DNA of 64,000 bases from Escherichia coli (GCF_050920415.1 NZ_CP169309.1), one strand, 5' to 3'. Shown: positions 46,664-63,994, counted from the stretch's first letter. The notes: generated from the sequence alone by a model not told the origin. Program-made: numbers and translations.

Positions 46664-48232
46664 TTAGCGTGCCGGCTGAGTAGTCGTGGAAGACTGCTCA
46701 AAGTGATAGCGACCGGTTTTCAGGCTGCTTGGGCCGAGGCGTGCAAACTTGAACATCAAGAACAATTCTGCCACCAGGAACAGGGTATACAGGCCACAAA
46801 TCAGCACCATCGAGAAGATGAGGTCGCCTGCGGTCAGTGACGAGTTCGCTACAGCTGTCGGCAGCACTTCACCGATAGCCCAAGGTTGGCGACCATATTC
46901 AGCCACGAACCAGCCCGCTTCTACAGCAATCCACGGCAGCGGAATACCGTACAGTGCGGCGCGCAGCAGCCATTTTTTCTCGCCAATACGGTTGCGGATG
47001 ACACTCCAGAAAGAGAGCGCGATGATTGCCAGCAGCAGGAAGCCACACGCCACCATGATACGGAACGCGAAGTACAGCGGCGCTACACGTGGAATGGAGT
47101 CTTTGGTTGCCTGTTGAATCTGCGCTTCAGTCGCATCCGCCACGTTTGGCGTGTAGCGTTTCAGCAACAGACCGTAACCGAGGTCTTTCTTCATGCTATT
47201 GAACTGGTCACGAACCGCCTGGTCAGTAGACCCAGAACGCAGTTGCTCGAGCAGAGAGTACGCCTTCATCCCGTTACGGATGCGTTCTTCATGCTGCACC
47301 ATCAGCTCTTTCAGGCCGATAACCGGGGTATCCACGGAACGCGTTGCAATGATGCCCAGCGCGTAAGGGATCTGGATCGCAAATTTGTTCGTCTCCTCTT
47401 CCTGATCAGGAATGCCGAACAGAGTAAAGGCAGCAGGTGCAGGTTGCGTTTCCCACTCGGCTTCAATAGCAGCCAGTTTGGTTTTCTGCACGTCGCCCAT
47501 TTCATAACCAGATTCATCACCCAGAACAATAACAGACAGAACGGCAGCCATACCGAAGCTGGCAGCGATAGCAAAGGAGCGTTTAGCGAAGGCGAAGTCA
47601 CGACCTTTCAGCATATACCATGCGCTGATACCGAGGATGAACATCGCGCCAGTCACATAACCAGACGCTACCGTGTGAACGAATTTCACCTGAGCAACCG
47701 GGTTAAGCACCAGCTCGGAGAAGCTCACCATCTCCATACGCATAGTTTCAAAGTTGAAATCGGACGCGATTGGGTTTTGCATCCAGCCGTTCGCAACCAG
47801 AATCCACAGCGCGGACAGGTTTGAACCGAGCGCCACCAGCCAGGTGACACACATATGCTGAACTTTACCCAGACGATCCCAACCGAAGAAGAACAGACCT
47901 ACAAAGGTGGATTCGAGGAAGAAGGCCATCAGACCTTCGATTGCCAGCGGCGCGCCGAAAATATCCCCTACATAGTGGGAATAGTAAGACCAGTTAGTCC
48001 CGAACTGGAACTCCATGGTCAGACCGGTTGCCACACCCAGAGCGAAGTTGATACCAAACAACTTGCCCCAGAACTTGGTCATATCTTTATAAATCTGTTT
48101 GCCGGAAAGGACGTAGACCGTTTCCATAATGGCCAGCAGGAACGCCATACCGAGCGTCAGTGGCACAAAAAGGAAGTGGTACATCGCGGTCAAGGCAAAC
48201 TGTAAGCGCGACAGTTCGACTATATCTAACAT
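46664..48232 (-). CDS. cydA: Cytochrome bd-I ubiquinol oxidase subunit I (522 aa)
   Basis: Matches CydA incl. Q-loop. Confidence 0.95.
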
Positions 48233-48568
48233 CATGACTCCTTGCTCATCGCATGAAGACTCCGAGAGTGAACCCCGTTAGAAAGGGTCACACGCATGCC
48301 CCAATACAAAATTATTTGCTCGCCTCTATCGCTGCCTTTTCCTCAAAAGTGGAAAAGACAATGATAAAAAGTTACAAATATGTTAATGAATAAACCAAAT
48401 TGATCCCGTAATTATATTACGCCGCAAAATCCTTACAATAAACAGGTTTTTATTGAGCAAATTTGCATTTTTCGACAGTGATCAATTTATAGCGAAATTG
48501 TCACGACCTCACCAATTTGATCTACGACAATTTATCGTGTTTTGCAGATTTTTTTCAAGAATTAAAAA

Positions 48569-48582
48569 TTGATTTATATCAA
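48569..48582. promoter_or_regulatory. FNR-type site in the long AT-rich cydAB control region
   Basis: TTGATTTATATCAA (TTGAT-N4-ATCAA). Confidence 0.6.
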
Positions 48583-49035
48583 AACCAATCAAATATGTTA
48601 ATTATGTATAAACCATAGACCATTGGTAATTTTATTGTTAATTTATTGTGAAATATTTATGTAACACAATTATTACAATAAAAAGACATAGATAAAAAAC
48701 CAGTGTTTTATTTAACAGAATCGCCTTATCAACTTTTTATAATACCAATTGATTAGAGTAGCCAATTTGTTGCTATTTTACATAACATATTTTTATCAAA
48801 GTTAATTGATTGTTGCCTTTATGAGCATCGCCGTAAGACCGCCATGTTATTGTTTCATTTGTAATAATCACCAATAAGTATCGATGAGAGAGATATCGCT
48901 TAACAGAGGCGACTGTGTCTGCATGAACACAGGCAACTTTCGCCTGATAAACGAAAAATGAGCGATTTTTGCAAGTTAGTTTTTCTATAGCTGGGTACGC
49001 TGAGCGCCTCGCTTGATTACAATGAGGTTGCTGCC

Positions 49036-49980
49036 ATGGGTCTTGATAATATAGGTTCTGTTGTCAATCGCTTCTCTGGTTGGCCATCAAATGATCCTCT
49101 AAAAACAGATAACGAATCAATGACATCACCCGTGACTGTGCAGGTAATAAAGTTGATTGCCGCCATCCTTGACCCACATCGGATAGTCGTTGGTATCGAT
49201 ACACTCTATACAACGCAGCGCAAAACATTTACCTCAGAGGGTCAACAACTCATTGAATCAGCATTGAAAACACTTAATGTGATGAATTTAAATAACCTGG
49301 AAACAGATCGCGATGAGGAGGGTAACTATCTGGCTTTTGGATATAACGTTGACACTCCTGACAGAATAACCGTTTCTGCTTATAATGAAAAAAAACCTTT
49401 CTGTTATGGCCAATGTCTTTTAATACAGGATGAAGAACCAGATTTATTTAACCTGGTAAAAATTAAAACCTTTGAAGCCAGGCATAATTATGTTTCTAAA
49501 TTGATGAGCGATCCGGAATTTATGTTTAAATTCAGTTATAGCGCCCAACAAAATAGATTAGAACCTCATCTTCTGGTTCCCACTTATTTCCCTCTGAAAA
49601 CAAACCAACCGGTTACGCTAGAGGATTTACTGATACTTTATCGTTTCTTTAAAATGAATGGCGATTTTAATATATTAACATCAGATGAATACATGAGTAT
49701 CATGACACCTCTGATGAAGTGTGAGCGTAGTGTCCACGACCATAACAGGTATGTGACGGGCAAAGATGCTCTTCTTCTGGACAATCCTCCGTCTGGTAAC
49801 CAGATATATTTCCATATTTCCCCTGACGAATCAGCAACACTTGTCCTTTATTTTTCAGACAATAACCTTGAATCCTTCGTCTTTGAAAATGATATTCCGA
49901 GCCAGTATCGACATTTCAAAATGTTTACCAATTTAGCACTAGTTATTGATCAGTTAACCGACGCCAATCAAATACTTTAA
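49036..49980 (+). CDS. Hypothetical protein, AT-rich (314 aa)
   Basis: Long ORF with AT-rich codon usage unlike the flanking backbone; no family recognised. Confidence 0.5.
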   Translation: MGLDNIGSVVNRFSGWPSNDPLKTDNESMTSPVTVQVIKLIAAILDPHRIVVGIDTLYTTQRKTFTSEGQQLIESALKTLNVMNLNNLETDRDEEGNYLAFGYNVDTPDRITVSAYNEKKPFCYGQCLLIQDEEPDLFNLVKIKTFEARHNYVSKLMSDPEFMFKFSYSAQQNRLEPHLLVPTYFPLKTNQPVTLEDLLILYRFFKMNGDFNILTSDEYMSIMTPLMKCERSVHDHNRYVTGKDALLLDNPPSGNQIYFHISPDESATLVLYFSDNNLESFVFENDIPSQYRHFKMFTNLALVIDQLTDANQIL

Positions 49981-50059
49981 TTTTCTATACAGCCCTGTGT
50001 AAAATATTGCTAAACAGTGCCCGGGGTTGATTTTTATTCCTCACGGTGATATTTAAATC

Positions 50060-50482
50060 ATGACACCATCTCAGCTCTCTTTTAATACTCTTCCTGTCAA
50101 TGCAACATGCACTTCAGAGATAACAGTAAACACACAAAAATTCTCTGACATCCTCTACTCAGTGGGGTATTCCCTAAAGGATCTGGCTTATCTGAGCAGA
50201 TGTCTGGCATCATTACACCCAACACTCGCCAAAAACATTTATGAAACGGAAAATCTCAGCGATCAAAAATTACTTTATATAGATTGCCGTAGTACAAATG
50301 AAATCAAGATAAATATATTTTTGGGTCAAAAAAGAGAAGAATTAATCGAAATTAGTTCTGATACAGTCATTTTTTCGATACTGTCTTCATTGATTGACTC
50401 AGCTATTTCTGAACATCGACATCAAATCACCGTTAATGATTCAAATAATTCTGAACTATTTTATGAGGATTATACTGATTAA
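50060..50482 (+). CDS. Hypothetical acidic protein, AT-rich (140 aa)
   Basis: ORF co-oriented with and 80 nt downstream of 49036-49980. Confidence 0.45.
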   Translation: MTPSQLSFNTLPVNATCTSEITVNTQKFSDILYSVGYSLKDLAYLSRCLASLHPTLAKNIYETENLSDQKLLYIDCRSTNEIKINIFLGQKREELIEISSDTVIFSILSSLIDSAISEHRHQITVNDSNNSELFYEDYTD

Positions 50483-51024
50483 ATCCACTCTGTGCGAACC
50501 TGTCCTGCATTTATGCCAGAAGTATTAGAATCTTTGCTTAACGTTACTCATACAGTAGCACCTTCATGTGTCTCTCTTTTTTACGAACAATCAAAAGAAC
50601 TAACAAGGGGCATAATTCGTATAAATTATTAACCATTTGTTATATTCAACATTTTTTTACATTAAGCAGAGATGAATTGCAGTGAAATTCAAGTTAAATT
50701 TTACGAAATGTATTACTCATGGCTAAAAAATCTTCCCAAAATGCAAATTAGAAGTTGATCACAATTATCTCAATCCATCAAATCAAGATAATTTTAAAAA
50801 TTTAACATCAATGACAGCGGTTGGCATAACACACTGAATTAAAATGAAAATTTAAAAAACAATTTTTAAACAATCATTTCCCGAAAGACATTTTGAAAAT
50901 AGATCAATTGCAACATTACGGTCAGATAAAGACACTCCTCTGATATTAAACCTGTGCCGTTATGAACGGCCATAAATACGACGTGTGTAACTTAATTTAC
51001 TCTCTGTCTTACAAAGGATTACCC

Positions 51025-51474
51025 ATGAAGAAAGCAACACTTGTGATTGGCGTTATTGGCGCGGACTGCCATGCAGTAGGCAATAAAGTTCTGGACCGCG
51101 TTTTTAGCAACCATGACTTCAGAGTCATTAATCTGGGCGTAATGGTCAGCCAGGACGAATATATTGATGCTGCCATTGAAACTGGCGCTGACGCGATTGT
51201 CGTCTCCTCTATCTATGGGCATGGCGATATCGACTGTCTGGGCATGCGCGAACGCTGCATTGAGCGTGGCTTGGGGGACATCCTGCTCTATGTGGGCGGC
51301 AACCTGGTGGTCGGAAAACATGACTTCGCTGACGTGGAAACCAAGTTCAAAGAGATGGGATTTGATCGCGTCTTCGCCCCAAGTCATGACTTAGAAGATG
51401 TCTGCCAGCTGATGGCCCACGATATCAACCAACGTCATGGCGTTGAAACTTGCATTCTTGAAGAGGCAATCTGA
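51025..51474 (+). CDS. glmS: Glutamate mutase sigma subunit, B12-binding (methylaspartate mutase S; 149 aa from MKKATL)
   Basis: Close match to clostridial MutS/GlmS ([18 protein letters not shown]..., GDIDC...); symbol is not the glucosamine-6-P synthase. Confidence 0.85.
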
Positions 51475-52862
51475 TGCAAATCGTCTCTGTCGATATTGGA
51501 TCGACGTGGACCAAAGCAGCCCTCTTCACCCGGGAGGGGGACGCGTTAACGTTGGTTAACCACGTTCTGACCCCAACCACCATCCATCATCTGGCAGAGG
51601 GATTTTTCTCCAGCCTTAACCAGGTGTTAAACGTAGATAATGCCCTCCCCCTGTTAAACCGCGGTGAGGTTGCATTGAAGTATTCCTCTTCTGCCAAAGG
51701 TGGGCTGGCGGTTGCCGCAATGGGAATAGTGCCTTCTATCACTCTGGAAACCGCGAAAGTAACCGCTCACTCTGCAGGTGCTAAAATTGCGCAATATTAC
51801 TCCTACAAGCTGAACCGCCGTGATATCCAGGCACTAGAAGAAACGCAGCCCGATATTCTCTTGTTCACCGGCGGCACCGACGGCGGAGAAGAAAGCTACG
51901 GACTGAATAACGCCCGTGTGCTGGCAGAATCCAAACTCGACTGCGCCATTATTTATGCCGGAAACCGGGATATTCAGGACAAGGTGCAGGAGACCCTCGG
52001 GCATAAAGACCTGACCATCGTCGACAACGTTCTGCCCGATCTTGACCATCCGAACCCTTTAGCTGCACGCCAGGCTATCTGCGACATATTCCTTAAACGC
52101 ATCGTTAAAGGGAAAGGGCTGGATGTCATTGTTGATAAAACAGGCGAAGAACCAATGCCGACACCATGGACGGTCTTTGAACTGGTGAAGGCAATCAGTA
52201 ACGTCGATCACAGCTGGAAAGAGTTCATGCTGATCGACATGGGCGGCGCAACCACCGATGTCTATTCCGCCTGTGCCAACACGCTCTCGCCCGACACTGT
52301 TTTACATGGCGTACCGGAACCCTTCGTAAAACGGACGGTGGAAGGCGATCTGGGAATGCGCGTCTCGGCAATGGTGGTTGGTGAAAGTGCGAAAGAGTTA
52401 GTCAGTGTGAATTTTGCTCAGCAACCCGCACAGTTGGACGCTTTTTATCATTACCTCCGTCATCTAGTCGCTCATCCCGACTACTTACCCGCGAATGCAG
52501 ATGAAAAATATTTCGATACCGTCCTGGCCGGACTGTGTGTGGGTTATGCCACCGAAAGACATGCGGGCACCAAAAAAGAGGTCTGCACCTGCGTCGGCAA
52601 TGTCGATTTACAGATGGGACGTGACCTGACAACCGTGCGTAAAGTCGTGGGTTCCGGCGGATGGCTCTCGCGTGCCAGTCAGTTCGATATGCATCACTGG
52701 TTGAAATACCGCGAGTTAAACGACGACGGTAAACGCATTCTCTTACCGACCGAATTTGAATATTACCGCGATTCCCGGGGGCTATTACCACTGCTGGCAA
52801 ACGTCGCCAGAGTCGATCCGCTGGCCGCCGCGCGCACCAGTATTCAATGCTTAACCCTATAA
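51474..52862 (+). CDS. glmL: Glutamate mutase-associated MutL/GlmL-like protein (462 aa)
   Basis: Conserved position between the S and E subunits; start overlaps the glmS stop. Confidence 0.65.
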   Translation: MQIVSVDIGSTWTKAALFTREGDALTLVNHVLTPTTIHHLAEGFFSSLNQVLNVDNALPLLNRGEVALKYSSSAKGGLAVAAMGIVPSITLETAKVTAHSAGAKIAQYYSYKLNRRDIQALEETQPDILLFTGGTDGGEESYGLNNARVLAESKLDCAIIYAGNRDIQDKVQETLGHKDLTIVDNVLPDLDHPNPLAARQAICDIFLKRIVKGKGLDVIVDKTGEEPMPTPWTVFELVKAISNVDHSWKEFMLIDMGGATTDVYSACANTLSPDTVLHGVPEPFVKRTVEGDLGMRVSAMVVGESAKELVSVNFAQQPAQLDAFYHYLRHLVAHPDYLPANADEKYFDTVLAGLCVGYATERHAGTKKEVCTCVGNVDLQMGRDLTTVRKVVGSGGWLSRASQFDMHHWLKYRELNDDGKRILLPTEFEYYRDSRGLLPLLANVARVDPLAAARTSIQCLTL

Positions 52863-52880
52863 CAATTAAGGCTGCAATCA

Positions 52881-54326
52881 ATGGAACTTCGAAATAAGAA
52901 ATTAACCCATGACGAATTCATGACCGAGCGGCAACAGGTATTGAAAACCTGGGAAACCGGCAAGGATGTTGAAAACTTTGAAGATGGCGTTAAATACCAA
53001 CAAACCATTCCTGAGCATAAACGCTTCTCTCTTGCCCTGCTGAAAGCAGACAAGGAAGGTAAAACCCTTAGCCAACCGCGCGCAGGCGTGGCGCTGATGG
53101 ACGAACACATCGAACTACTGAAAACACTACAAGAAGAGTGCGATCTGCTGCCGAGCACTATCGATGCATATACCCGTCTGAATCGGTACGAAGAAGCGGC
53201 TGTAGGGATTAAAAAATCCATCGAAGCCGGAACCTCTAAACTGAACGGTTTACCGGTAGTTAACCACGGCGTCGCAGCTTGCCGTCGCCTCACCGAAACT
53301 CTGCAAAAACCGCTACAGATCCGCCACGGCACGCCTGATGCGCGTCTGCTGGCTGAAATCTCGATGGCCAGCGGCTTTACCAGTTATGAAGGCGGCGGCA
53401 TTTCCTACAATATTCCGTATGCCAAGCGCGTAACGCTGGAAAAATCGATCCGCGACTGGCAGTACTGCGATCGTTTAATGGGGATGTATGAAGAACACGG
53501 GATCCGCATCAACCGCGAACCGTTTGGCCCACTAACGGGTACGCTAATCCCGCCGTTTATCTCGCACTCTATCGCAATAATCGAAGGCTTGCTGGCACTG
53601 GAACAGGGTGTGAAGTCTATCACCGTTGGTTATGGTCAGGTCGGTAGCCTGACGCAGGATGTTGCGGCGATCCAGTCTCTGCGGGAACTTGCACACGAAT
53701 ATTTTCAGAGCTATGGCTATACCGACTACGAATTAAGTACCGTGTTTCACCAGTGGATGGGAGGCTTTCCGGAGGACGAATCGAAAGCGTTCGCCATTAT
53801 CTCCTGGGGTGCTGCCGTCGCGGGGATGTCTGGTGCTACCAAAGTCATCACCAAAAGTCCGCACGAAGCCTGGGGCATCCCGACTGCTGCTGCCAACATT
53901 CAGGGGCTAAAAGCCTCCCGCCAGATGCTCAACATGGTCAACGAGCAGAAATTCCCGCCGTGCCCGGCGGTTGAACTAGAAATTGAACTGATTAAGAGCG
54001 AGGTTCGCGCTGTACTGAACAAAGTGTTCGAACTGGGCAATGGTGATATTGCGCGCGGTACGGTGCTGGCATTTGAAGCGGGCGTACTGGATGTGCCGTT
54101 TGCGCCAGCCGCCTGCAACGCAGGCAAAATTCTTCCGGTCCGTGACAACACCGGCGCGATACGCGTACTGGAAGCCGGAGCCGTTCCATTGCCAAAAGAT
54201 ATTCTCGACCTCCACCACGATTACGTTGCTGAACGCGCGCGCTTTGAAGGACGCCAACCGACATTCCAGATGGTTGTAGATGACATCAATGCTGTATCCC
54301 ACAGTAAATTAATAGGAAGACCATAA
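52881..54326 (+). CDS. glmE: Glutamate mutase epsilon (catalytic) subunit (481 aa)
   Basis: Size and sequence fit MutE/GlmE. Confidence 0.8.
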   Translation: MELRNKKLTHDEFMTERQQVLKTWETGKDVENFEDGVKYQQTIPEHKRFSLALLKADKEGKTLSQPRAGVALMDEHIELLKTLQEECDLLPSTIDAYTRLNRYEEAAVGIKKSIEAGTSKLNGLPVVNHGVAACRRLTETLQKPLQIRHGTPDARLLAEISMASGFTSYEGGGISYNIPYAKRVTLEKSIRDWQYCDRLMGMYEEHGIRINREPFGPLTGTLIPPFISHSIAIIEGLLALEQGVKSITVGYGQVGSLTQDVAAIQSLRELAHEYFQSYGYTDYELSTVFHQWMGGFPEDESKAFAIISWGAAVAGMSGATKVITKSPHEAWGIPTAAANIQGLKASRQMLNMVNEQKFPPCPAVELEIELIKSEVRAVLNKVFELGNGDIARGTVLAFEAGVLDVPFAPAACNAGKILPVRDNTGAIRVLEAGAVPLPKDILDLHHDYVAERARFEGRQPTFQMVVDDINAVSHSKLIGRP

Positions 54327-55567
54327 TGAAAATAAAACAGGCCCTTTTTACCGCTGGCTACTCCTCATTCTATTTCGATGATCAGCAGGCGATAAAAAAC
54401 GGAGCGGGTCACGACGGCTTTTTTTATACCGGAGAGCCGGTAACACAGGGGTTTAACGCCGTACGTCAGGCCGGGGAGTGCGTTTCGGTTCAGTTGATTC
54501 TGGAAAACGGTGCGGTCGCCGTAGGCGACTGTGCTGCCGTACAGTATTCCGGGGCAGGCGGTCGCGATCCACTGTTCCTCGCAGAGCACTTTATTCCGTT
54601 CCTCAACGACCATATCAAGCCATTACTGGTAGGCCGCGATGTGGATGCTTTCCTGCCGAATGCCCGTTTCTTCGACAAATTGCGTATTGACGGAAACTTG
54701 CTGCATACCGCCGTACGTTATGGATTATCACAGGCGCTGCTTGATGCTACCGCGCTGGCAACCGGCCGTCTAAAAACTGAAGTGGTCTGTGATGAATGGC
54801 AGTTGCCACGCGTGGCGGAATCCATTCCATTATTTGGTCAGAGCGGAGACGATCGATATATCGCTGTCGATAAGATGATCCTTAAGGGCATCGACGTGCT
54901 ACCTCATGCGCTGATTAATAACGTCGAAGAGAAACTGGGCTTTAAAGGAGAAAAACTGCGCGAATATGTCCGTTGGCTATCCGATCGGATTCTAAGCAAA
55001 CGCACCAGCGCACGCTACCACCCTACCCTACACATCGATGTATACGGCACTATTGGTCTGATCTTCGATATGGATCCGCTTCGCTGTGCGCAATACATCG
55101 CCAGTCTGGAAAAAGAGGCGCAAGGCCTGCCGCTCTACATTGAGGGGCCGGTCGATGCCGGTAACAAGCCCGATCAAATCCGCCTGCTGACCGCGATTAC
55201 CAAAGAGCTGACGCGCCTCGGTTCCGGCGTGAAAATTGTGGCCGATGAATGGTGTAACACCTACCAGGATATTGTTGATTTCACTGATGCCGCCAGTTGC
55301 CACATGGTGCAAATCAAAACCCCGGATCTGGGCAGTATTCACAACATCGTCGATGCAGTTCTTTATTGCAACAGCCACAGCATGGAAGCGTACCAGGGCG
55401 GCACCTGCAATGAAACCGATGTCAGCGCCCGCACGTGTGTCCACGTCGCCCTTGCCGCTCGCCCCATGCGTATGCTGGTAAAACCGGGGATGGGCTTTGA
55501 CGAAGGCCTCGATATCGTCTTCAACGAAATGAATCGTACTATCGCGCTGTTGCAGGCTAAGGATTAA
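54326..55567 (+). CDS. mal: 3-methylaspartate ammonia-lyase (413 aa)
   Basis: Enolase-superfamily methylaspartase, N-terminus similar to clostridial MAL (MKIK...YFDDQ.AIK.GA). Confidence 0.85.
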   Translation: MKIKQALFTAGYSSFYFDDQQAIKNGAGHDGFFYTGEPVTQGFNAVRQAGECVSVQLILENGAVAVGDCAAVQYSGAGGRDPLFLAEHFIPFLNDHIKPLLVGRDVDAFLPNARFFDKLRIDGNLLHTAVRYGLSQALLDATALATGRLKTEVVCDEWQLPRVAESIPLFGQSGDDRYIAVDKMILKGIDVLPHALINNVEEKLGFKGEKLREYVRWLSDRILSKRTSARYHPTLHIDVYGTIGLIFDMDPLRCAQYIASLEKEAQGLPLYIEGPVDAGNKPDQIRLLTAITKELTRLGSGVKIVADEWCNTYQDIVDFTDAASCHMVQIKTPDLGSIHNIVDAVLYCNSHSMEAYQGGTCNETDVSARTCVHVALAARPMRMLVKPGMGFDEGLDIVFNEMNRTIALLQAKD

Positions 55568-55570
55568 CAA

Positions 55571-56941
55571 ATGGCTCGTTCTTTTAAAGTCTTATCGCCA
55601 ACGGCAATCCTCGGGTATGGATTCCCGGAAGAGAGCTTCCGCAAAGCGATGGCAGAATCGCCCGATCTGATCGCCGTTGATGCAGGATCTTCCGATCCAG
55701 GTCCCCACTACCTCGGGGCAGGCAAACCGTTTACCGATCGCGCAGGGGTCAAGCGCGATCTGCGCTATATGATCACCGCAGGCGTGCAAAATAATATACC
55801 GGTGGTGATCGGAACGGCCGGCGGTTCTGGTGCCGCTCCACACCTGGAGTGGTGCCGAGAAATAATTCATGAGATTGCCCGGGAAGAGCGCCTCGCGTTC
55901 TCGATGGCGCTGATCCCGGCAGACGTTGACAAAGCCATCGTCCACCAGGCGCTGGATAACGGCAAAATCACGGCGCTGGATTTTGTCCCGCCGTTAACCC
56001 ACGACTCGATTGACGAAAGTACGTATATCGTCGCGCAAATGGGCATCGAACCCTTCCAGCGGGCGCTGAAAGAAGGAGCGCAAGTGGTGCTGGGCGGGCG
56101 CGCTTACGACCCGGCCTGCTTTGCTGCGCTTCCGATCATGCAAGGCTTTGATGAAGGTCTGGCACTGCATTGTGGGAAAATCCTTGAATGTGCGGCAATC
56201 GCTGCAACACCCGGCTCAGGCTCTGACTGTGCGATGGGCATCATTGATGACAACGGCTTTACGCTGAAGACGTTTAATCCGAAGCGTAAATTTACCGAAA
56301 CGTCAGCTGCTGCACACACACTGTATGAGAAATCCGATCCCTACTTTCTGCCAGGACCTGGCGGCGTGCTAAACCTGAAAGGTTGCACATTTAAAGCGAT
56401 CAATGATGGCGAAGTGTACGTCAGCGGTTCTAAGCATGAAGAAACGCCCTATGCCCTGAAACTGGAAGGTGCGCGGCGGGTGGGTTTCCGCTGTTTGACC
56501 ATCGCCGGAACGCGCGACCCGATCATGATCGCCGGGATCGATAACATCATCGATGAAGTCAAAACCAGCGTTTCGCGTAATCTGTCCTTAGACGATGACA
56601 GCATTCGCATCAATTTCCACCTGTACGGCAAAAACGGGGTGATGGGTGACCATGAACCGATGCAAACTGCCGGGCATGAGCTGGGGATTGTCCTTGATGT
56701 AGTTGCACCGACCCAGGAAATTGCCAACAGCGTTTGCTCGCTGGTGCGCTCTACCATGCTGCACTACGGCTATGAAAACCGCATCGCTACCGCAGGCAAC
56801 CTGGCGTTCCCGTTCTCCCCTTCTGATATCCAGGGCGGGCCGGTATACGAATTTTCCATATATCACCTGATTGAAGCCAACGACGCTCTGCGTTTTGATT
56901 TCCATATTGAACAGGTGACGCCAGAAGGAGTTCAGGCATGA
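55571..56941 (+). CDS. Conserved hypothetical protein, DUF1446 (AtuA N-terminal-like) family (456 aa)
   Basis: Family assignment from memory of the AtuA-like fold; no catalytic motif identified. Confidence 0.5.
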   Translation: MARSFKVLSPTAILGYGFPEESFRKAMAESPDLIAVDAGSSDPGPHYLGAGKPFTDRAGVKRDLRYMITAGVQNNIPVVIGTAGGSGAAPHLEWCREIIHEIAREERLAFSMALIPADVDKAIVHQALDNGKITALDFVPPLTHDSIDESTYIVAQMGIEPFQRALKEGAQVVLGGRAYDPACFAALPIMQGFDEGLALHCGKILECAAIAATPGSGSDCAMGIIDDNGFTLKTFNPKRKFTETSAAAHTLYEKSDPYFLPGPGGVLNLKGCTFKAINDGEVYVSGSKHEETPYALKLEGARRVGFRCLTIAGTRDPIMIAGIDNIIDEVKTSVSRNLSLDDDSIRINFHLYGKNGVMGDHEPMQTAGHELGIVLDVVAPTQEIANSVCSLVRSTMLHYGYENRIATAGNLAFPFSPSDIQGGPVYEFSIYHLIEANDALRFDFHIEQVTPEGVQA

Positions 56942-57255
56942 AACAGTCAATTGTCTCACTGGCGCAAGTCATTCGTTCGAAAAATGCCGGACCTTACGAA
57001 CTGGTTTTAGATATTTTATTTAAAACGAAAGAAAACTATGAGCGAGTAAAATCATCAGGGCAATTAACCCCAGAACTGATTGCGCGCTTATATCATGTTG
57101 AACCTGACTTTATTCATCGTATTGTCTGGTTTGATCCTTCTAACGCAGTAAAAATTGTCATGCCACGAGATATTATCTCCGGGAATGTAGGTGACAATGA
57201 TGTCTATGGCGCACAGCAACATGCACCTTTATTAAATATGAGTTTCGATTTGTAA
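56938..57255 (+). CDS. Small partner protein, DUF4387-like (105 aa), translationally coupled to the preceding gene
   Basis: ATGA stop/start overlap with 55571-56941. Confidence 0.45.
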   Translation: MKQSIVSLAQVIRSKNAGPYELVLDILFKTKENYERVKSSGQLTPELIARLYHVEPDFIHRIVWFDPSNAVKIVMPRDIISGNVGDNDVYGAQQHAPLLNMSFDL

Positions 57256-57415
57256 AAATCCGAACACTTTTAGCCAACTGACATCCCGTCACTTATTGCA
57301 GCTCAACACTTCAGCTATTTGTAAGGTTGTTATAGCAGGTAGATGCCTGAATCTCTATTCAGGCATCCACTTCTCCTGATTCTGATTTATCGCCGTGCAC
57401 CTGATGGAGGAAAAA

Positions 57416-58696
57416 ATGAAGAAAATAAGTTTAACTACGATGATTCTTTTGGCGCTGGTACTTGGAATGATTATCGGCGTAGTGCTCAATAACACTGCTT
57501 CACCGGAAACAGCAAAACTCTATGCGCAAGAAATATCGATATTCACGACGATTTTCTTACGACTGATAAAAATGATTATCGCTCCGTTAGTGGTCTCTAC
57601 CCTGGTGGTAGGTATTGCTAAAATGGGCGATGCCAAAGCCCTTGGTCGTATTTTTTCTAAAACACTCTTTTTATTTATTTGCGCCTCATTGCTGTCAATT
57701 GCCTTAGGCTTGATAACGGTAAATTTCTTCATGCCAGGCACAGGAATTAATTTTGTTGCACACGGTGCCGAAACCACCGGAGTGGTCGCGTCAGAACCCT
57801 TTACACTAAAAGTATTTATTTCGCATGCTTTCCCCACCAGCATTGTCGATGCCATGGCGCACAATGAAATTTTGCAAATCGTGGTGTTCTCAATTTTCCT
57901 CGGCTGTAGCCTGACGGCGATTGGTGAGAAAGGCAGCGCCATCGTTCACGCCTTAGATTCGCTGGCACATGCCATGTTAAAGCTCACTGGCTACGTCATG
58001 CTCTTCGCTCCCCTGACCGTATTCGCCGCTATTTCAGCATTGATTGCTGAACGAGGACTGGCAGTTATGGTGAGCGCCGGGATCTTTATGGGTGAATTTT
58101 ATTTCACCATGTTATTACTTTGGGTGCTGCTTATCGGTCTGGCCATCGTTTATGTCGGCCCCTGCATCAGACGCCTGACCCGCGCCCTTTCAGAACCCGC
58201 CCTGCTGGCATTTACCACATCCAGTTCTGAAGCTGCTTTTCCGGGAACGCTTGAAAAACTGGAGCAATTTGGCGTTTCCCCCAAAATTGCCAGCTTTGTC
58301 TTACCCATTGGCTACTCATTTAATCTCGTTGGATCAATGGCCTACTGCTCCTTCGCCACAGTTTTCATCGCCCAGGCCTGCAATATCCATTTATCCATCG
58401 GTGAGCAAATCACCATGCTGTTGATCCTGATGTTGACCTCGAAAGGAATGGCTGGCGTACCACGCGCCTCAATGGTGGTTATCGCCGCCACGCTCAACCA
58501 GTTCAATATTCCGGAAGCGGGGCTGATCTTGCTGATGGGCGTTGATCCGTTCCTTGATATGGGGCGTTCCGCGACAAACGTCATGAGCAACGCAATGGGC
58601 GCTGCGATGGTGAGTCGGTGGGAAGGCGAACATTTCGGCGAGGGTTGTCGGGGTAAAGCATTAAAACCCAATGAATCGAACGTTGCTCTGCCCTGA
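57416..58696 (+). CDS. Dicarboxylate/amino acid:cation symporter (GltP/DctA-like; 426 aa from MKKISL)
   Basis: DAACS-family TM topology and conserved motifs; GGAGGA RBS before ATG 57416. Confidence 0.8.
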   Translation: MKKISLTTMILLALVLGMIIGVVLNNTASPETAKLYAQEISIFTTIFLRLIKMIIAPLVVSTLVVGIAKMGDAKALGRIFSKTLFLFICASLLSIALGLITVNFFMPGTGINFVAHGAETTGVVASEPFTLKVFISHAFPTSIVDAMAHNEILQIVVFSIFLGCSLTAIGEKGSAIVHALDSLAHAMLKLTGYVMLFAPLTVFAAISALIAERGLAVMVSAGIFMGEFYFTMLLLWVLLIGLAIVYVGPCIRRLTRALSEPALLAFTTSSSEAAFPGTLEKLEQFGVSPKIASFVLPIGYSFNLVGSMAYCSFATVFIAQACNIHLSIGEQITMLLILMLTSKGMAGVPRASMVVIAATLNQFNIPEAGLILLMGVDPFLDMGRSATNVMSNAMGAAMVSRWEGEHFGEGCRGKALKPNESNVALP

Positions 58697-58803
58697 GGGG
58701 GATCTTAAGCAATCAGAAGCCAATGACTACGCATTTTTATAAGCCGGATCATGAAGTTAGACGGCAATTAAGTAACACTAACGTTTAAGGTGAAAAGTGA
58801 AAT

Positions 58804-60456
58804 ATGTCCAAACCATTTATCTGGCAAGAACCGTTTCTACAAAATAAAGACGGTACAGAATATACATTAATTAGCGATCAACATATTACAGTAACGGAAT
58901 TAGACGGCGAAGAAGTGATAAAAATCGCTCCTGAAGCATTAACGCTGCTTGCCCGGCAGGCATTTTATGAAGCCTCTTTTTTCTTACGTTCCGCTCATTT
59001 GCAACAGGTCGCCAGCATTCTTAGCGATCCGCAGGCCAGTAGTAATGATAAATACGTTGCGTTGCAGTTATTACGTAATGCTGAAGTCTCAGCAAAAGGG
59101 GTATTACCCAACTGTCAGGATACCGGCACCGCAACTATTGTTGCCAGTAAAGGGCAACAGATATGGACGGGAGGTAACGACGCTGAAGCCTTAAGCAAAG
59201 GCATTTACAGTACTTTCCAGGAAAATAATCTGCGCTTTTCACAAAATGCGCCGCTGGATATGTATACCGAAGTCAATACGCAAACCAATCTCCCGGCGCA
59301 GATTGATATCAGCGCTGTCGCTGGTAATGAGTACCATTTTCTCTGTGTTAATAAAGGGGGCGGCTCCGCCAATAAAGCCGCGCTTTATCAGGAAACCAAA
59401 TCCTTATTGCAACCAGAAAAACTGACCGCGTTTTTAATCGACAAAATGAAATCGTTGGGCACGGCCGCCTGCCCGCCCTACCACATCGCCTTTGTCATCG
59501 GAGGGCTTTCAGCCGATCAAACCTTAAAAGTTGCCAAGCTGGCCTCTACGAAATATTACGACAATTTGCCCACCAGCGGAAACGAGCAGGGACAAGCATT
59601 CCGTGATATTGAGCTGGAAAAAGCGTTGCTCGAAGCCAGTCAGCAATTTGGTATTGGTGCGCAATTTGGGGGTAAATATTTCGCTCATGATATTCGCGTC
59701 ATTCGTCTGCCGCGTCACGGTGGCTCTTGCCCGATAGCTATGGCGCTCTCCTGTTCTGCCGATCGCAATATCAAAGCAAAAATTAACAAGCACGGTATCT
59801 GGCTGGAAAAACTCGAACACAATCCGGGGCAATATATTCCAGCCTCATTGCGGGAAGAAAATCACGCGCAACATGTACACCTGGATCTAAACCGTCCGTT
59901 GCGTGACGTGATGCAGGATCTCGCCAGATTACCGGTAGGTACCCGCGTGTCGTTAAGTGGTCCCATCGTAGTGGCGCGCGATATCGCCCACGCAAAAATA
60001 AAAGCGCGGCTGGATAGCGGCGAATCGATGCCGGATTACCTGAAGCATCATATTGTCTATTACGCTGGCCCGGCGAAAACACCGGAGAACATGGCCTGCG
60101 GTTCACTGGGTCCAACCACGGGCGGTCGAATGGACGGTTATGTCGAAACCTTCCAGGCGGCTGGCGGCAGTCTGGTAATGTTATCGAAAGGTAACCGCAG
60201 CCAGCAGGTCACCGATGCCTGTCACAAACATGGCGGCTTCAATCTGGGAAGTATTGGCGGTGCAGCTGCGTTACTGGCGCAAGAATATGTCAAAAGTCTG
60301 CGTTGCCTGGAATACCCGGAGCTGGGTATGGAGGCGGTGTGGATGATGGAAGTGGAAAATCTGCCCGCATTCATCCTGGTCGATGATAAAGGCAATAATT
60401 TCTTTAGTCAGTTTGAGCAGCAACACCGCTGCGCCAGTTGCCCTGCGGGACATTAA
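58804..60456 (+). CDS. fumD: Class I (Fe-S) fumarate hydratase paralogue, mesaconase/fumarase FumD (550 aa)
   Basis: FumA/FumB-family length and motifs; clustered with glutamate mutase and methylaspartase. Confidence 0.8.
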
Positions 60457-60465
60457 GGAAAATGA

Positions 60466-61068
60466 ATGGAAGCGCGAATTTCAACTGAACGGCATGTGCA
60501 GCGCCAGCAGAAATTGAAGGAACAGGTCGATACGCGCGTCGCGGCGGCGATAGAGAAAAAAGGGATCTTGATTGTTTTCACCGGCAACGGCAAAGGGAAA
60601 TCCACTGCCGCGTTTGGTACTGTGACGCGCGCGGTGGGTCATGGCAAAACGGTGGGGGTTGCACAGTACATCAAGGGGCAATGGGACAACGGCGAATACA
60701 ACCTTCTCCAGCCGCTGGGGGTTGAGTTTCATATTATGGGAACCGGTTTTACCTGGGAGACTCAGAACCGGCAAGCGGATATCGATGCGGCGAAAGAGGT
60801 CTGGTCGGAAAGCAAACGGATGCTGGCTGACAAGCGTTACGACTTAGTGGTGCTTGATGAGCTCACCTATATGCTGGCTTACCATTATCTGGATACAGAA
60901 GAAGTGATCACTTCTCTGCAAAACCGTCCGGCACAACAAAGTGTCATTGTCACCGGACGCGGTTGCCACAGTCAGATATTAAAAATGGCGGATACGGTAA
61001 GTGAAATCCGCCCCGTCAAACATGCTTTTGATAACGGCATTCAGGCCCAGCCGGGGATCGACTGGTAA
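60466..61068 (+). CDS. Cob(I)alamin adenosyltransferase, BtuR/CobA family (200 aa)
   Basis: Strong similarity to E. coli BtuR (IIVFTGNGKGKSTAAFG...VVLDELTYM...TGRGC...VKHAFD.G..AQ.GID). Confidence 0.85.
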   Translation: MEARISTERHVQRQQKLKEQVDTRVAAAIEKKGILIVFTGNGKGKSTAAFGTVTRAVGHGKTVGVAQYIKGQWDNGEYNLLQPLGVEFHIMGTGFTWETQNRQADIDAAKEVWSESKRMLADKRYDLVVLDELTYMLAYHYLDTEEVITSLQNRPAQQSVIVTGRGCHSQILKMADTVSEIRPVKHAFDNGIQAQPGIDW

Positions 61069-61101
61069 TAACTGCGCCTGGCATCCCGCCAGGCGCAGGT
61101 T

Positions 61102-62007
61102 TTACATCTCCTGCGGTACGACCGATTTCGCCAGCAACCATTCACGAAATTGCTGCAAGTGCGGAGAGTCAGACTTCTCTTCCTGCCACGTCATAATAAA
61201 ACGATTACCGGTACGAATAGGCACATCACAGGGGATCACCATATCGCCACTATCCAAATCATGTTGAATAGCGAACCGTGGTAACAGCGCCACGCCGAGA
61301 TTAGAGCGCACGGCGGCAATCAGCATTGAAAGCAAATCGAAACGTGGTCCGTTATTGACCAGCGGACTGCTAACGCCAGATAAAGCAAACCACTCTTCCC
61401 AGCCAGTAATACGGGTGCTTTGATGCAGAAGTGGTAACTCAGTAAGCAGTTCTGCCACTGACAGTTTTTGATCGGACATTGCAAGCAAACTGCCGCTGCA
61501 TACCGGCAAAATCTCCTCTTCAAAGAGATATTCTACTTCCGCCCAGGGCGCGCAAAAATTTTCGCGCATAATGACAGCATCGTACTCCCGATTAAGAAAA
61601 TCGCCGTTATTAGCTAAAGAATGAATATTAACAATAATATCGGGATGTAACTTTGTGAATTCATGTAAATTTGGGATTAACCAGTGGGTACTAAACGTAG
61701 GATTAACGGCAAGTTCAATAACCTGAACCGTAGGCTGCCAGGTCATAATCGTATTGGTATCGCGTTCCAGCTTATTTAATGTTTCTTTTACTATCCCCAG
61801 GTAATACTTCCCTGCATCATTAAGAAAAATGCGTTTTTTAGAGTGTGAAAATAACGGAGTATGTAAAAATTCCTCCAGCGCACTTACTTGTCTGAATACA
61901 GCACTTTGGGTTAACGCTAACTCCTCAGCCGCTCTGGTATAACTTTCATGTCGTGCGACGACCTCAAAAGTCACCAGCAGCTCCGTTTTAGGTATTTTTC
62001 CTCGCAT
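61102..62007 (-). CDS. LysR-family transcriptional regulator (about 301 aa from MRGKIPKT)
   Basis: N-terminal LysR HTH (ELALTQSAVFRQVSALEEFL); divergent from the downstream rtcB-like gene. Confidence 0.8.
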   Translation of the reverse strand: MRGKIPKTELLVTFEVVARHESYTRAAEELALTQSAVFRQVSALEEFLHTPLFSHSKKRIFLNDAGKYYLGIVKETLNKLERDTNTIMTWQPTVQVIELAVNPTFSTHWLIPNLHEFTKLHPDIIVNIHSLANNGDFLNREYDAVIMRENFCAPWAEVEYLFEEEILPVCSGSLLAMSDQKLSVAELLTELPLLHQSTRITGWEEWFALSGVSSPLVNNGPRFDLLSMLIAAVRSNLGVALLPRFAIQHDLDSGDMVIPCDVPIRTGNRFIMTWQEEKSDSPHLQQFREWLLAKSVVPQEM

Positions 62008-62221
62008 AATGCCGTCCGTGAAAAAATAACAACTCAAAAATTATTTTATAAAAAACAGTAGCACTAATGAATATCATAATTCAAATAAACAAACCAGTCA
62101 GCTATATGTCTAACCAGGAAAATAAAGTGACAATAATCCTAAAACAGGAATTTCACCTCAGTTATCCGCATGCAATACTTTAAAGCTATTATTGCAAGAA
62201 TATTATTCATATACATGAATA

Positions 62222-62345
62222 TACTCTAAATAAGTCAAGTTGCAGGAAGGGAACAAATAATGAATTTCCAGAAGCTTACATAAGTAAGTGACCTGGGTGA
62301 GCGAACATCGATGCAGCACATGCAACTTGAATTATGACAAGTATA
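62222..62345. repeat. ERIC/IRU intergenic repeat (second copy)
   Basis: Near-identical to 16341-16465 incl. AAGTAAGTGACCTGGGTGAGCG. Confidence 0.8.
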
Positions 62346-62596
62346 CAATGATAAATTTATATACCCTATGTTATATATTATCTATGTCCGGTTAAATTGA
62401 ATGAGTCATAGCCTTAAAAGACTTCACAAAAGATAATTCCTCTTTAACAATAAGCCAGATTTACCACTTGTAAAACTTGCTATCGCCACATACACTACGC
62501 GCGTTTTCTTTCCCTTTTGCTGGCTGCTGACCGGAAAGACAAAATTACCCTCGCAATACAGGGGGTTGTTTAACGTCTATATTTCAGGACAGCGTT

Positions 62597-63994
62597 ATGC
62601 ATCATCTTTTAAGGCTTGATAAAGCCTTTCTGCGCAAAGGGATCCAACTTTCCCGTGCCAACAATATTGTTTCATTATGTCGTCCATCAGGAGCCAGTGC
62701 CCGCGTACTGCTGCCGGACGAACTGCCGCTGGAAGAAAAAGCAGTGACACAACTGCTTGATTTTGCAGAAGTGAAGATACCAGGCCATCCAGGTTACGTA
62801 CGCCAGACGTGCGCGACGCCAGATTTTCATCCCGGCAATGGCGTCCCCGTTGGCGCGGTGGTGGCCTCAACGCCGGATTTAGTCATTCCCGCCGCCATCG
62901 GCACCGATATTTCTTGTGGCATGCGGCTGCTGACGACCGGATTAACACTTGAGCAAGCCGAAGCGCATAAAGACGTCATCGCTCAGCGGTTAACGCAAGT
63001 GCTACTGCAAAATGAGCGCGATGTTCCGTTATCCGCACAGGCGTTCACCGCGCTTTTTGATGGCGGACCGGCAGATTGCGTGTCGACCTTGCCATCAGCA
63101 GGTCTCTGGACACGCACGAATATCCCCCGAATGGTACAAGAGATTGACCGCTGCATTGGGCTTAACGAGCATAACAGTCATTCGCGTTATGCCCCACCCG
63201 CCCTGCTGGCAACGGACCGCGCATTACTCCGCGATCCTTGTCTGGGTACGCCGGGTTCAGGTAATCATTTTATTGAACTTCAGGTCGTTGATAGCGTGGT
63301 TGATCGCCATGTAGCCTGGCAACAAGGGCTGAAAACAGGCGATATTGTGGTGATGATCCACAGTGGATCGCGAGATGTTGGCTTTTACGTCGGAAGACGC
63401 TGGATGGATCGCGCCCGTGCTGAATGGCCCACCGGACATAAACATCCACAAAGCGGGTTATATGGTCTGGCAGGCGGACTGGCGGAGGAATATCTACAAG
63501 CGATAGGAATGGCGGCGCGTTACGCGTGGTTAAATCGCGTGACAATTGCCGAAATGGTGCGCGTATGTCTTGCCAATCTCTTTCATCAGGACAATTCGCA
63601 TCTGGTGGTGGATGTGCCACATAACATCATCCTTCGCGAGCATGAAATGAATATTCATCGCAAAGGCGCAACACCGGCACGAGTGGGCAATCTGGCGTTA
63701 ATCCCTGGTTCAATGGGCGATTATTCGTGGCTTGCGGTAGGTTGCGGCAACCCGGAGTGGCTGTGGTCATGCAGTCACGGAGCAGGACGCAGCCAGCGTC
63801 GGCAGGCCATGCGCTCACGCGCGACTGAAGAGTCAACGCTGCCGTGGCAATGCGTCACATTGCGCGAAGAACGACGTCTTGAAGAAGCGCCAGCGGCTTA
63901 TAAAGATATTGGTCCGGTTATCGAAGCTCAACAAGAAGCCGGATTAATTCAGCCAGCGGTCAGATTTCGACCGTGGTTAACGTTTAAAGCATAA
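62597..63994 (+). CDS. RtcB-family RNA ligase paralogue (465 aa)
   Basis: RtcB motifs GSGNHF, HSGSRDVG, SCSHGAGR. Confidence 0.75.
   Translation: MHHLLRLDKAFLRKGIQLSRANNIVSLCRPSGASARVLLPDELPLEEKAVTQLLDFAEVKIPGHPGYVRQTCATPDFHPGNGVPVGAVVASTPDLVIPAAIGTDISCGMRLLTTGLTLEQAEAHKDVIAQRLTQVLLQNERDVPLSAQAFTALFDGGPADCVSTLPSAGLWTRTNIPRMVQEIDRCIGLNEHNSHSRYAPPALLATDRALLRDPCLGTPGSGNHFIELQVVDSVVDRHVAWQQGLKTGDIVVMIHSGSRDVGFYVGRRWMDRARAEWPTGHKHPQSGLYGLAGGLAEEYLQAIGMAARYAWLNRVTIAEMVRVCLANLFHQDNSHLVVDVPHNIILREHEMNIHRKGATPARVGNLALIPGSMGDYSWLAVGCGNPEWLWSCSHGAGRSQRRQAMRSRATEESTLPWQCVTLREERRLEEAPAAYKDIGPVIEAQQEAGLIQPAVRFRPWLTFKA

Follow-up and report, generated by a model that had tools for sequence, protein, structure and literature searches.

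Gene content and organization of the island

The window analyzed here, a 64,000-nucleotide stretch of Escherichia coli DNA, contains an island of nine genes on one strand (51025-61068), in the order glmS-glmL-glmE-mal-cmlA-cmlB-gltP-fumD-cobO (Table 1). The island is flanked by cydAB and sucCD, and its left end is a low-GC stretch (0.33-0.38). Here we focus on the adjacent genes cmlA and cmlB. The 1685 bases of the cmlAB region are 100 % identical to E. coli chromosome NZ_CP169399.1, for which RefSeq carries the same two CDS as our ORF listing under the names 'acyclic terpene utilization AtuA family protein' (cmlA) and 'DUF4387 domain-containing protein' (cmlB). RefSeq places a methylaspartate ammonia-lyase gene upstream and a dicarboxylate/amino acid:cation symporter gene downstream, so the pair does lie between a methylaspartase gene and a transporter, as had been proposed from the sequence.

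Table 1. Features of the island in the window
Feature	Position	Strand	Basis
glmS, glutamate (methylaspartate) mutase small B12-binding subunit, first gene of the operon	51025..51474	+	RefSeq
glmL (mutL), mutase accessory/reactivating protein	51474..52862	+	RefSeq
glmE, glutamate mutase large subunit	52881..54326	+	RefSeq
mal, 3-methylaspartate ammonia-lyase	54326..55567	+	RefSeq
cmlA, predicted citramalate lyase large subunit, 456 aa, AtuA/DUF1446 family	55571..56941	+	ORF, ATG start
Translational-coupling junction (putative): AAGGAG and cmlB ATG over cmlA TGA	56925..56941	+	read from sequence
cmlB, predicted citramalate lyase small subunit, 105 aa, DUF4387	56938..57255	+	ORF, ATG start
Hairpin, 14-nt arms (93 % complementary), 4-nt loop, no T-run	57339..57370	+	repeat search
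gltP-like dicarboxylate/amino acid:cation symporter, presumed glutamate uptake	57416..58696	+	RefSeq
fumD, class I fumarase/mesaconase, mesaconate to (S)-citramalate (CmlAB substrate)	58804..60456	+	RefSeq
cobO, cob(I)alamin adenosyltransferase, adenosylcobalamin for the mutase, last gene of the operon	60466..61068	+	RefSeq
Intrinsic-terminator-like hairpin, strong, 11 pairs (9 G-C), closes the operon	61072..61098	+	promoter/terminator scan
LysR-type regulator, divergent, presumed island regulator	61102..62007	-	RefSeq

The cmlA start lies 3 nt from the mal stop codon, with TAAGGA at 55558-55563. At the cmlA/cmlB boundary the two reading frames overlap as ATGA, the cmlB ATG occupying 56938-56940 and the cmlA TGA 56939-56941 (the junction sequence ends ...GGCATGAAACAG), and a Shine-Dalgarno sequence, AAGGAG at 56925-56930, can be read 7 nt 5' of the cmlB ATG. 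This 4-nt overlap has identical spacing across all enterobacterial loci (L007-L019). The original prediction of a 456-aa and a 105-aa frame joined by an ATGA overlap agrees exactly with the coordinates in our ORF listing. Together with the Shine-Dalgarno sequence of cmlB itself, the overlap would be expected to match the amounts of CmlA and CmlB through translational coupling. Three minus-strand ORFs in the same interval (55592-55945, 56449-56757 and 56588-56959) were rejected, being unsupported and lying on the strand opposite to conserved coding sequence.

The spacer that separates cmlB from the transporter gene is 160 nt long, has a lower GC content and contains the hairpin at 57339-57370. 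This hairpin matched no Rfam family; it might serve in mRNA processing or stability, or be a palindrome to which a protein binds. Promoter-like sites were not enriched (23, compared with 24.4 in shuffled sequence), and only the terminator after cobO stood out. An Rfam search of both strands of 48000-62700, at E values up to 1, found no RNA family, and thus no B12 riboswitch was detected. The symporter and the LysR-type regulator are labelled GltP and LTTR, respectively, in Fig. 5 of an earlier description of this cluster (PMC4682846).

The edges of the island have features of their own. Between cydA and glmS, the low-GC left edge contains two ORFs (49036-49980, 314 aa; 50060-50482, 140 aa) that are each annotated 'hypothetical protein' in RefSeq and are found in O157:H7 too. 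On the right, a gene for an RtcB-family RNA ligase (62597-63994) sits between the LysR regulator and sucD; it is missing from that position in O157:H7 FRIK804, indicating that the right edge of the island is strain-variable.

CmlA and CmlB belong to the AtuA and DUF4387 families

Profile searches upheld the recognition of AtuA-like domains in both proteins. CmlA residues 63-394 match Pfam AtuA (PF07287, formerly DUF1446; E = 1.5e-18, 67.3 bits), and CmlB residues 6-101 match DUF4387 (PF14330; E = 2.9e-39, 134 bits, 97 of 98 model positions). The two parts are indeed fused in some organisms, as anticipated: P0227 (621 aa) and P0258 (608 aa) each contain both. Homologs number more than 6800, and 22 CmlA sequences from several phyla share 150-odd invariant columns, so that the conservation of the pair goes far beyond chance. 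Other domain combinations may also occur; in the predicted proteins P0128, P0142 and P0186, an N-terminal DUF4387 domain is followed by unrelated C-terminal extensions of roughly 230-430 aa.

Near-identity to a crystallized citramalate lyase

Both proteins match a crystallized enzyme from end to end. CmlA is 91.9 % identical to chain A of PDB entries 9ERQ/9EVF (E = 5.6e-293), and CmlB is identical to 9erq_B at 88 of 104 positions (84.6 %; E = 5.2e-57). The depositors named these chains, from Raoultella planticola, 'Citramalate lyase, subunit A (cmlA)' and 'subunit B (cmlB)'; entry 9ERQ, released on 2025-10-22, is by its entry title an AMPPNP-citramalate complex. The E. coli proteins differ from them by 37 substitutions in CmlA and 16 in CmlB, and none of the 37 falls in a column invariant among the 22 aligned CmlA sequences. 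As in the CmlAB-type lyase, a separate small DUF4387 subunit is encoded directly downstream of the large subunit, and genes for glutamate mutase, methylaspartase and mesaconase are in the same operon.

A preprint of January 2026 used Raoultella cmlAB as a citramalate lyase yielding pyruvate and acetate (bioRxiv 10.64898/2026.01.16.699985). In that work, an acetyl-CoA auxotroph carrying a cmlAB plasmid grew on mesaconate and lost growth when cured of the plasmid, and isotope labelling traced mesaconate carbon to acetyl-CoA; growth occurred only on mesaconate and not on racemic citramalate. The genes were employed explicitly for a CoA-independent route, in which the reaction is treated as reversible and disfavored by 20 mM acetate, and the acetate as free and needing activation by Acs (10.64898/2026.01.16.699985). 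The functional claim rests on the depositors' names, the entry title and this preprint from another group, and the E. coli copy, judging by its sequence, probably has the same activity as the Raoultella enzyme.

These data bear out the suggestion that the pair is an enzyme of the pathway, for example one converting citramalate, since the near-identical proteins of 9ERQ/9EVF are named citramalate lyase and the preprint uses cmlAB as one. They also show that the pair was wrongly taken to be uncharacterized: others had already established the function, named the enzyme and deposited two crystal structures. The further suggestions of mesaconate conversion, mutase repair or cofactor handling are unsupported, because FumD, GlmL and CobO fill those roles in the same operon. 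The evidence supports citramalate conversion as the missing step, a correct deduction about an enzyme that was already known and is under-annotated in RefSeq.

A probable CoA-independent last step for the methylaspartate pathway

We consider it highly probable that CmlA and CmlB together form a citramalate lyase that works without coenzyme A or acyl carrier protein and carries out the last step of the methylaspartate pathway encoded by the island. In the pathway that we propose, the GltP-like carrier would import glutamate, and the adenosylcobalamin-dependent glutamate mutase GlmS/GlmE would convert it to 3-methylaspartate, with GlmL keeping the mutase active and CobO supplying its coenzyme. 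Mal would then deaminate 3-methylaspartate to mesaconate, FumD would hydrate mesaconate to (S)-citramalate, and the E. coli CmlAB is predicted to cleave (S)-citramalate to pyruvate and acetate.

Kronen and Berg described the cluster in 2015, characterized FumD from E. coli O157:H7 biochemically and showed it to be a mesaconase (PMC4682846). In their account, these enterobacteria lacked the step that follows FumD, and a DUF1446 gene lay downstream of mal; because E. coli citrate lyase, isocitrate lyase and methylisocitrate lyase all failed to cleave (S)-citramalate, its fate was called unclear (PMC4682846). Extracts of E. coli ATCC 700728 had neither citramalate lyase nor methylaspartase activity, and no condition was found under which that strain expressed the island (PMC4682846). 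Since methylaspartase was also absent and the island was not expressed, the missing lyase activity is not evidence on the enzyme.

Distribution, linkage and selection

Among 5426 complete E. coli genomes, cmlAB is present in 1125 and mal in 1122, and 1117 contain 80 % or more of the 10.1-kb island. These matching counts indicate that, within E. coli, cmlAB belongs to the island as a fixed component. In one E. coli record the pair and mal are plasmid-borne instead of chromosomal, and one genome has two copies. All nine island genes are intact, with pN/pS values of 0.00-0.17 against O157:H7. In the comparison with O157:H7 FRIK804, pN/pS was 0.05 for cmlA and 0 for cmlB (no non-synonymous differences); against Citrobacter, the values were 0.06 and 0.12. 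Both E. coli genes are under purifying selection.

Scanning one genome per species gave 80 loci, whose CmlA relatives are 55-91 % identical. Represented among them are Enterobacterales, Betaproteobacteria, Riflebacteria, Aminicenantes, Spirochaetes, Lentisphaerae, Planctomycetes, Fibrobacteres, Chloroflexi and many Clostridia. A cmlB homolog comes next after cmlA in 77 of the 80 species, and in the other three the locus is cut off at cmlA or just past it. In 63 of the 80, cmlA is immediately preceded by glmE and mal in the same orientation. Examination of gene neighborhoods therefore confirmed that the pair is not absent from the cluster, being fixed in E. coli and glm/mal-linked in most of the species scanned. 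A tblastn search with E. coli K-12 CitC/D/E/F/X/G detected no CitD, CitF, CitC, CitX or CitG homolog at any of the 80 loci, and CitE-like genes at two.

Seen from the methylaspartase side, for which two loci were checked, Paludibacterium has a minimal operon of six genes, glmS-mutL-glmE-mal-cmlA-cmlB, an arrangement also seen on a metagenomic contig. The best 120 Mal homologs were all at least 72 % identical, a range that leaves clostridial CitDEF-type clusters outside their reach.

About ten species have a close cmlAB (55-68 % identity) that has neither glm nor mal within 10 kb (L024, L047, L056, L058, L059, L072, L080, L081, L085 and L086); they include Accumulibacter, Desulfospira, Haliea, Shewanella, Dethiobacter, Magnetococcales, a Pseudomonadales MAG and Desulforamulus. 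The enzyme is thus not exclusively tied to glutamate fermentation, and CmlAB must also serve other citramalate sources or act in another context. In Dethiobacter (L072), cmlAB comes after genes for a two-component system of the LytS/BtsR type and for a CstA-family transporter whose best NCBIfam match is a pyruvate/proton symporter model. The Magnetococcales MAG (L081) has two CitE-like genes downstream of cmlAB.

Another gene recurs at these loci. A conserved protein of ~317 aa with a Walker A motif, GAEGSGKST, is encoded directly after cmlB or before glmS (for example L002:11712-12665, L005:11698-12654 and L090:11043-11966). It occurs in 43 of the 80 cmlA loci (L007-L086), none of them enterobacterial, and these loci carry the glm-mal cluster wherever their flanks are covered. 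Neither the window, nor the enterobacterial islands, nor the glm/mal-free cmlAB loci contain this gene. The protein gave no Pfam, NCBIfam or informative PDB match, and may be an undescribed component of the pathway.

Some NCBI records, from Salmonella enterica, Riflebacteria and Lentisphaerae (P0002, P0060 and P0071), still name CmlA homologs '3-methylaspartate ammonia-lyase', an error to which Kronen and Berg drew attention in 2015 (PMC4682846).

Conserved motifs and a possible role for the nucleotide

Direct cleavage of citramalate requires expulsion of the α-carbanion of acetate. The classical lyases for citrate and citramalate get around this carbanion with a thioester on a carrier protein, and enzymes of the isocitrate lyase type stabilize an aci-carboxylate. 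CmlAB has neither a carrier subunit nor an isocitrate-lyase-type fold. The AMPPNP in the crystal suggests that ATP is an effector or a participant in catalysis. In our working model, a bound adenine nucleotide would either activate the enzyme or transiently phosphorylate the C4 carboxylate, an acyl phosphate thereby taking the place of the thioester of the classical lyases.

Alignment of CmlA with fused AtuA-like proteins revealed a set of invariant motifs: GYG (15-17), DxGSxDxGP (37-45), GGxG (84-87), H91, K121, QxGxEP (156-161), GRxYDP (176-181), HxGKIxEC (200-207), AAHxLYEK (247-254), GPGG (262-265), R393, H398, Y401 and GN (409-410). Their conservation points to a catalytic apparatus common to the whole family. 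The loop at 37-45, which has low AlphaFold confidence, may be a mobile lid. Three observations, namely the motifs common to CmlA and the fused AtuA-like proteins, the AMPPNP in the crystal and the family-less P-loop gene, touch on a broader reading that we put forward tentatively and regard as possible, though short of probable. The AtuA/DUF4387 superfamily would consist of acetate-releasing hydroxy-acid lyases that rely on a bound adenine nucleotide and not on a thioester to make the α-carbanion of the carboxylate accessible, in one version through a catalytic phosphoryl cycle in which an acyl phosphate would stand in for the acetyl-S-ACP of citrate lyase, and the P-loop protein would be a further component of the pathway.

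Alternative explanations

The presence of AMPPNP together with citramalate in the crystal complex would also suit an ATP-consuming or acyl-phosphate-forming lyase in place of a simple free-acetate lyase, one that turns citramalate and ATP into pyruvate, acetyl phosphate and ADP, or into acetate, ADP and phosphate. The glycine-rich loops DxGSxDxGP, GGxG and GPGG are of the phosphate-binding kind, and an acyl phosphate could solve the carbanion problem chemically. However, the preprint's treatment of the reaction as reversible, as disfavored by 20 mM acetate and as yielding free acetate for Acs argues against net ATP use or release of acetyl phosphate, and we judge such a lyase rather improbable; the preprint's view of the reaction would still accommodate a catalytic nucleotide cycle. 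Membership in Pfam AtuA brings up a different substrate, a CoA ester, as in citramalyl-CoA cleavage or mesaconyl-CoA conversion, and a CoA ester has been tentatively proposed for AtuA itself (PMC4847356). Yet the crystal ligand is free citramalate, the route in the preprint is CoA-independent (10.64898/2026.01.16.699985), the island is without a CoA transferase or ligase, and citramalyl-CoA lyase genes are missing from most enterobacteria (PMC4682846). We regard a CoA-ester substrate as very improbable.

The position of the pair immediately 3' of mal, and the long-standing methylaspartase name of its homologs, would fit an accessory factor for glutamate mutase or methylaspartase that acts in repair, cofactor handling or as a chaperone. 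But GlmL and CobO already do these jobs in the operon, close homologs in about ten species have no mutase or methylaspartase nearby, the structure holds citramalate, and the cmlAB genes give citramalate cleavage in a host that has no mutase; this idea is effectively refuted and we give it almost no credence. A citramalate lyase might, on the other hand, be idle in E. coli, with cmlAB a cryptic, unexpressed remnant of a horizontally acquired island. E. coli is well established to have no de novo B12 synthesis and needs external corrinoid, and only about 21 % of complete genomes contain the island. In ATCC 700728, moreover, it was not inducible and methylaspartase went undetected (PMC4682846). 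Against this, its nine genes are intact with low pN/pS, it is kept whole in 1117 genomes, and it has its own adenosyltransferase and regulator, so a cryptic island seems unlikely.

Implications

DUF1446/AtuA was a large family for which no activity had been proven. CmlAB would close the methylaspartate pathway in E. coli O157:H7 and in roughly a fifth of E. coli, so that these strains, given B12, could take glutamate all the way to pyruvate, acetate and ammonia, a capacity that bears on gut colonization by pathogens. It is also a compact, CoA-independent C-C lyase already in use in synthetic pathways. The practical value lies in correcting annotation, both of the RefSeq names given above and of the methylaspartase label in older records; the same correction is due for thousands of homologs in many phyla.

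Comparison with known systems

The classical citramalate lyase, CitD-CitE-CitF with CitC, CitX and CitG (Clostridium tetanomorphum; citCDEFXG in E. coli), catalyzes the same overall reaction as CmlAB and occupies the equivalent position in the methylaspartate pathway. The model clusters of clostridia have CitDEF genes where cmlAB sits here (PMC4682846). With no CitD or CitF homolog at the 80 cmlA loci, this is the pattern expected of two unrelated enzymes for one step. Neither CmlA nor CmlB has a Pfam, NCBIfam or PDB match to Cit proteins, and we do not place them with CitDEF.

The isocitrate lyase/PEP mutase superfamily includes the isocitrate, methylisocitrate and 2,3-dimethylmalate lyases. 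It is a mechanistic analog only, in that its members cleave 2-hydroxy acids without a cofactor and expel a carboxylate α-carbanion; they are TIM barrels, a different fold, with no detectable similarity to CmlAB. E. coli cells expressing isocitrate or methylisocitrate lyase had no citramalate lyase activity (PMC4682846). Among DRE-TIM metallolyases (citramalate synthase, HMG-CoA lyase), no family model matched CmlA or CmlB above its cut-off. We dismissed as noise a hit to citramalate synthase TIGR00977 (E = 0.07, 11 bits against a cut-off of 450), a D-Ala-D-Ala ligase found with the CmlA profile (E = 0.047) and a human NTPase (E = 0.34).

Relatives of known context are the AtuA proteins of acyclic terpene utilization in Pseudomonas and Thauera, which belong to the same Pfam families as CmlAB and, at ~600 aa, have AtuA and DUF4387 fused. 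In fused proteins of 608-668 aa, the AtuA part is 37-40 % identical to full-length CmlA and is followed by a C-terminal DUF4387 domain. AtuA differs from CmlAB in being one polypeptide, in serving terpene catabolism and in its presumed use of a CoA ester; with a Pfam score of only 67 bits, CmlA is a divergent family member. AtuA has been tentatively assigned as a lyase that releases acetate from the CoA ester of a tertiary 3-hydroxy acid (PMC4847356), and the literature that we searched contained no direct demonstration of its activity. As CmlAB also frees acetate from a tertiary hydroxy acid, it fits this old proposal for AtuA and lends it weight.
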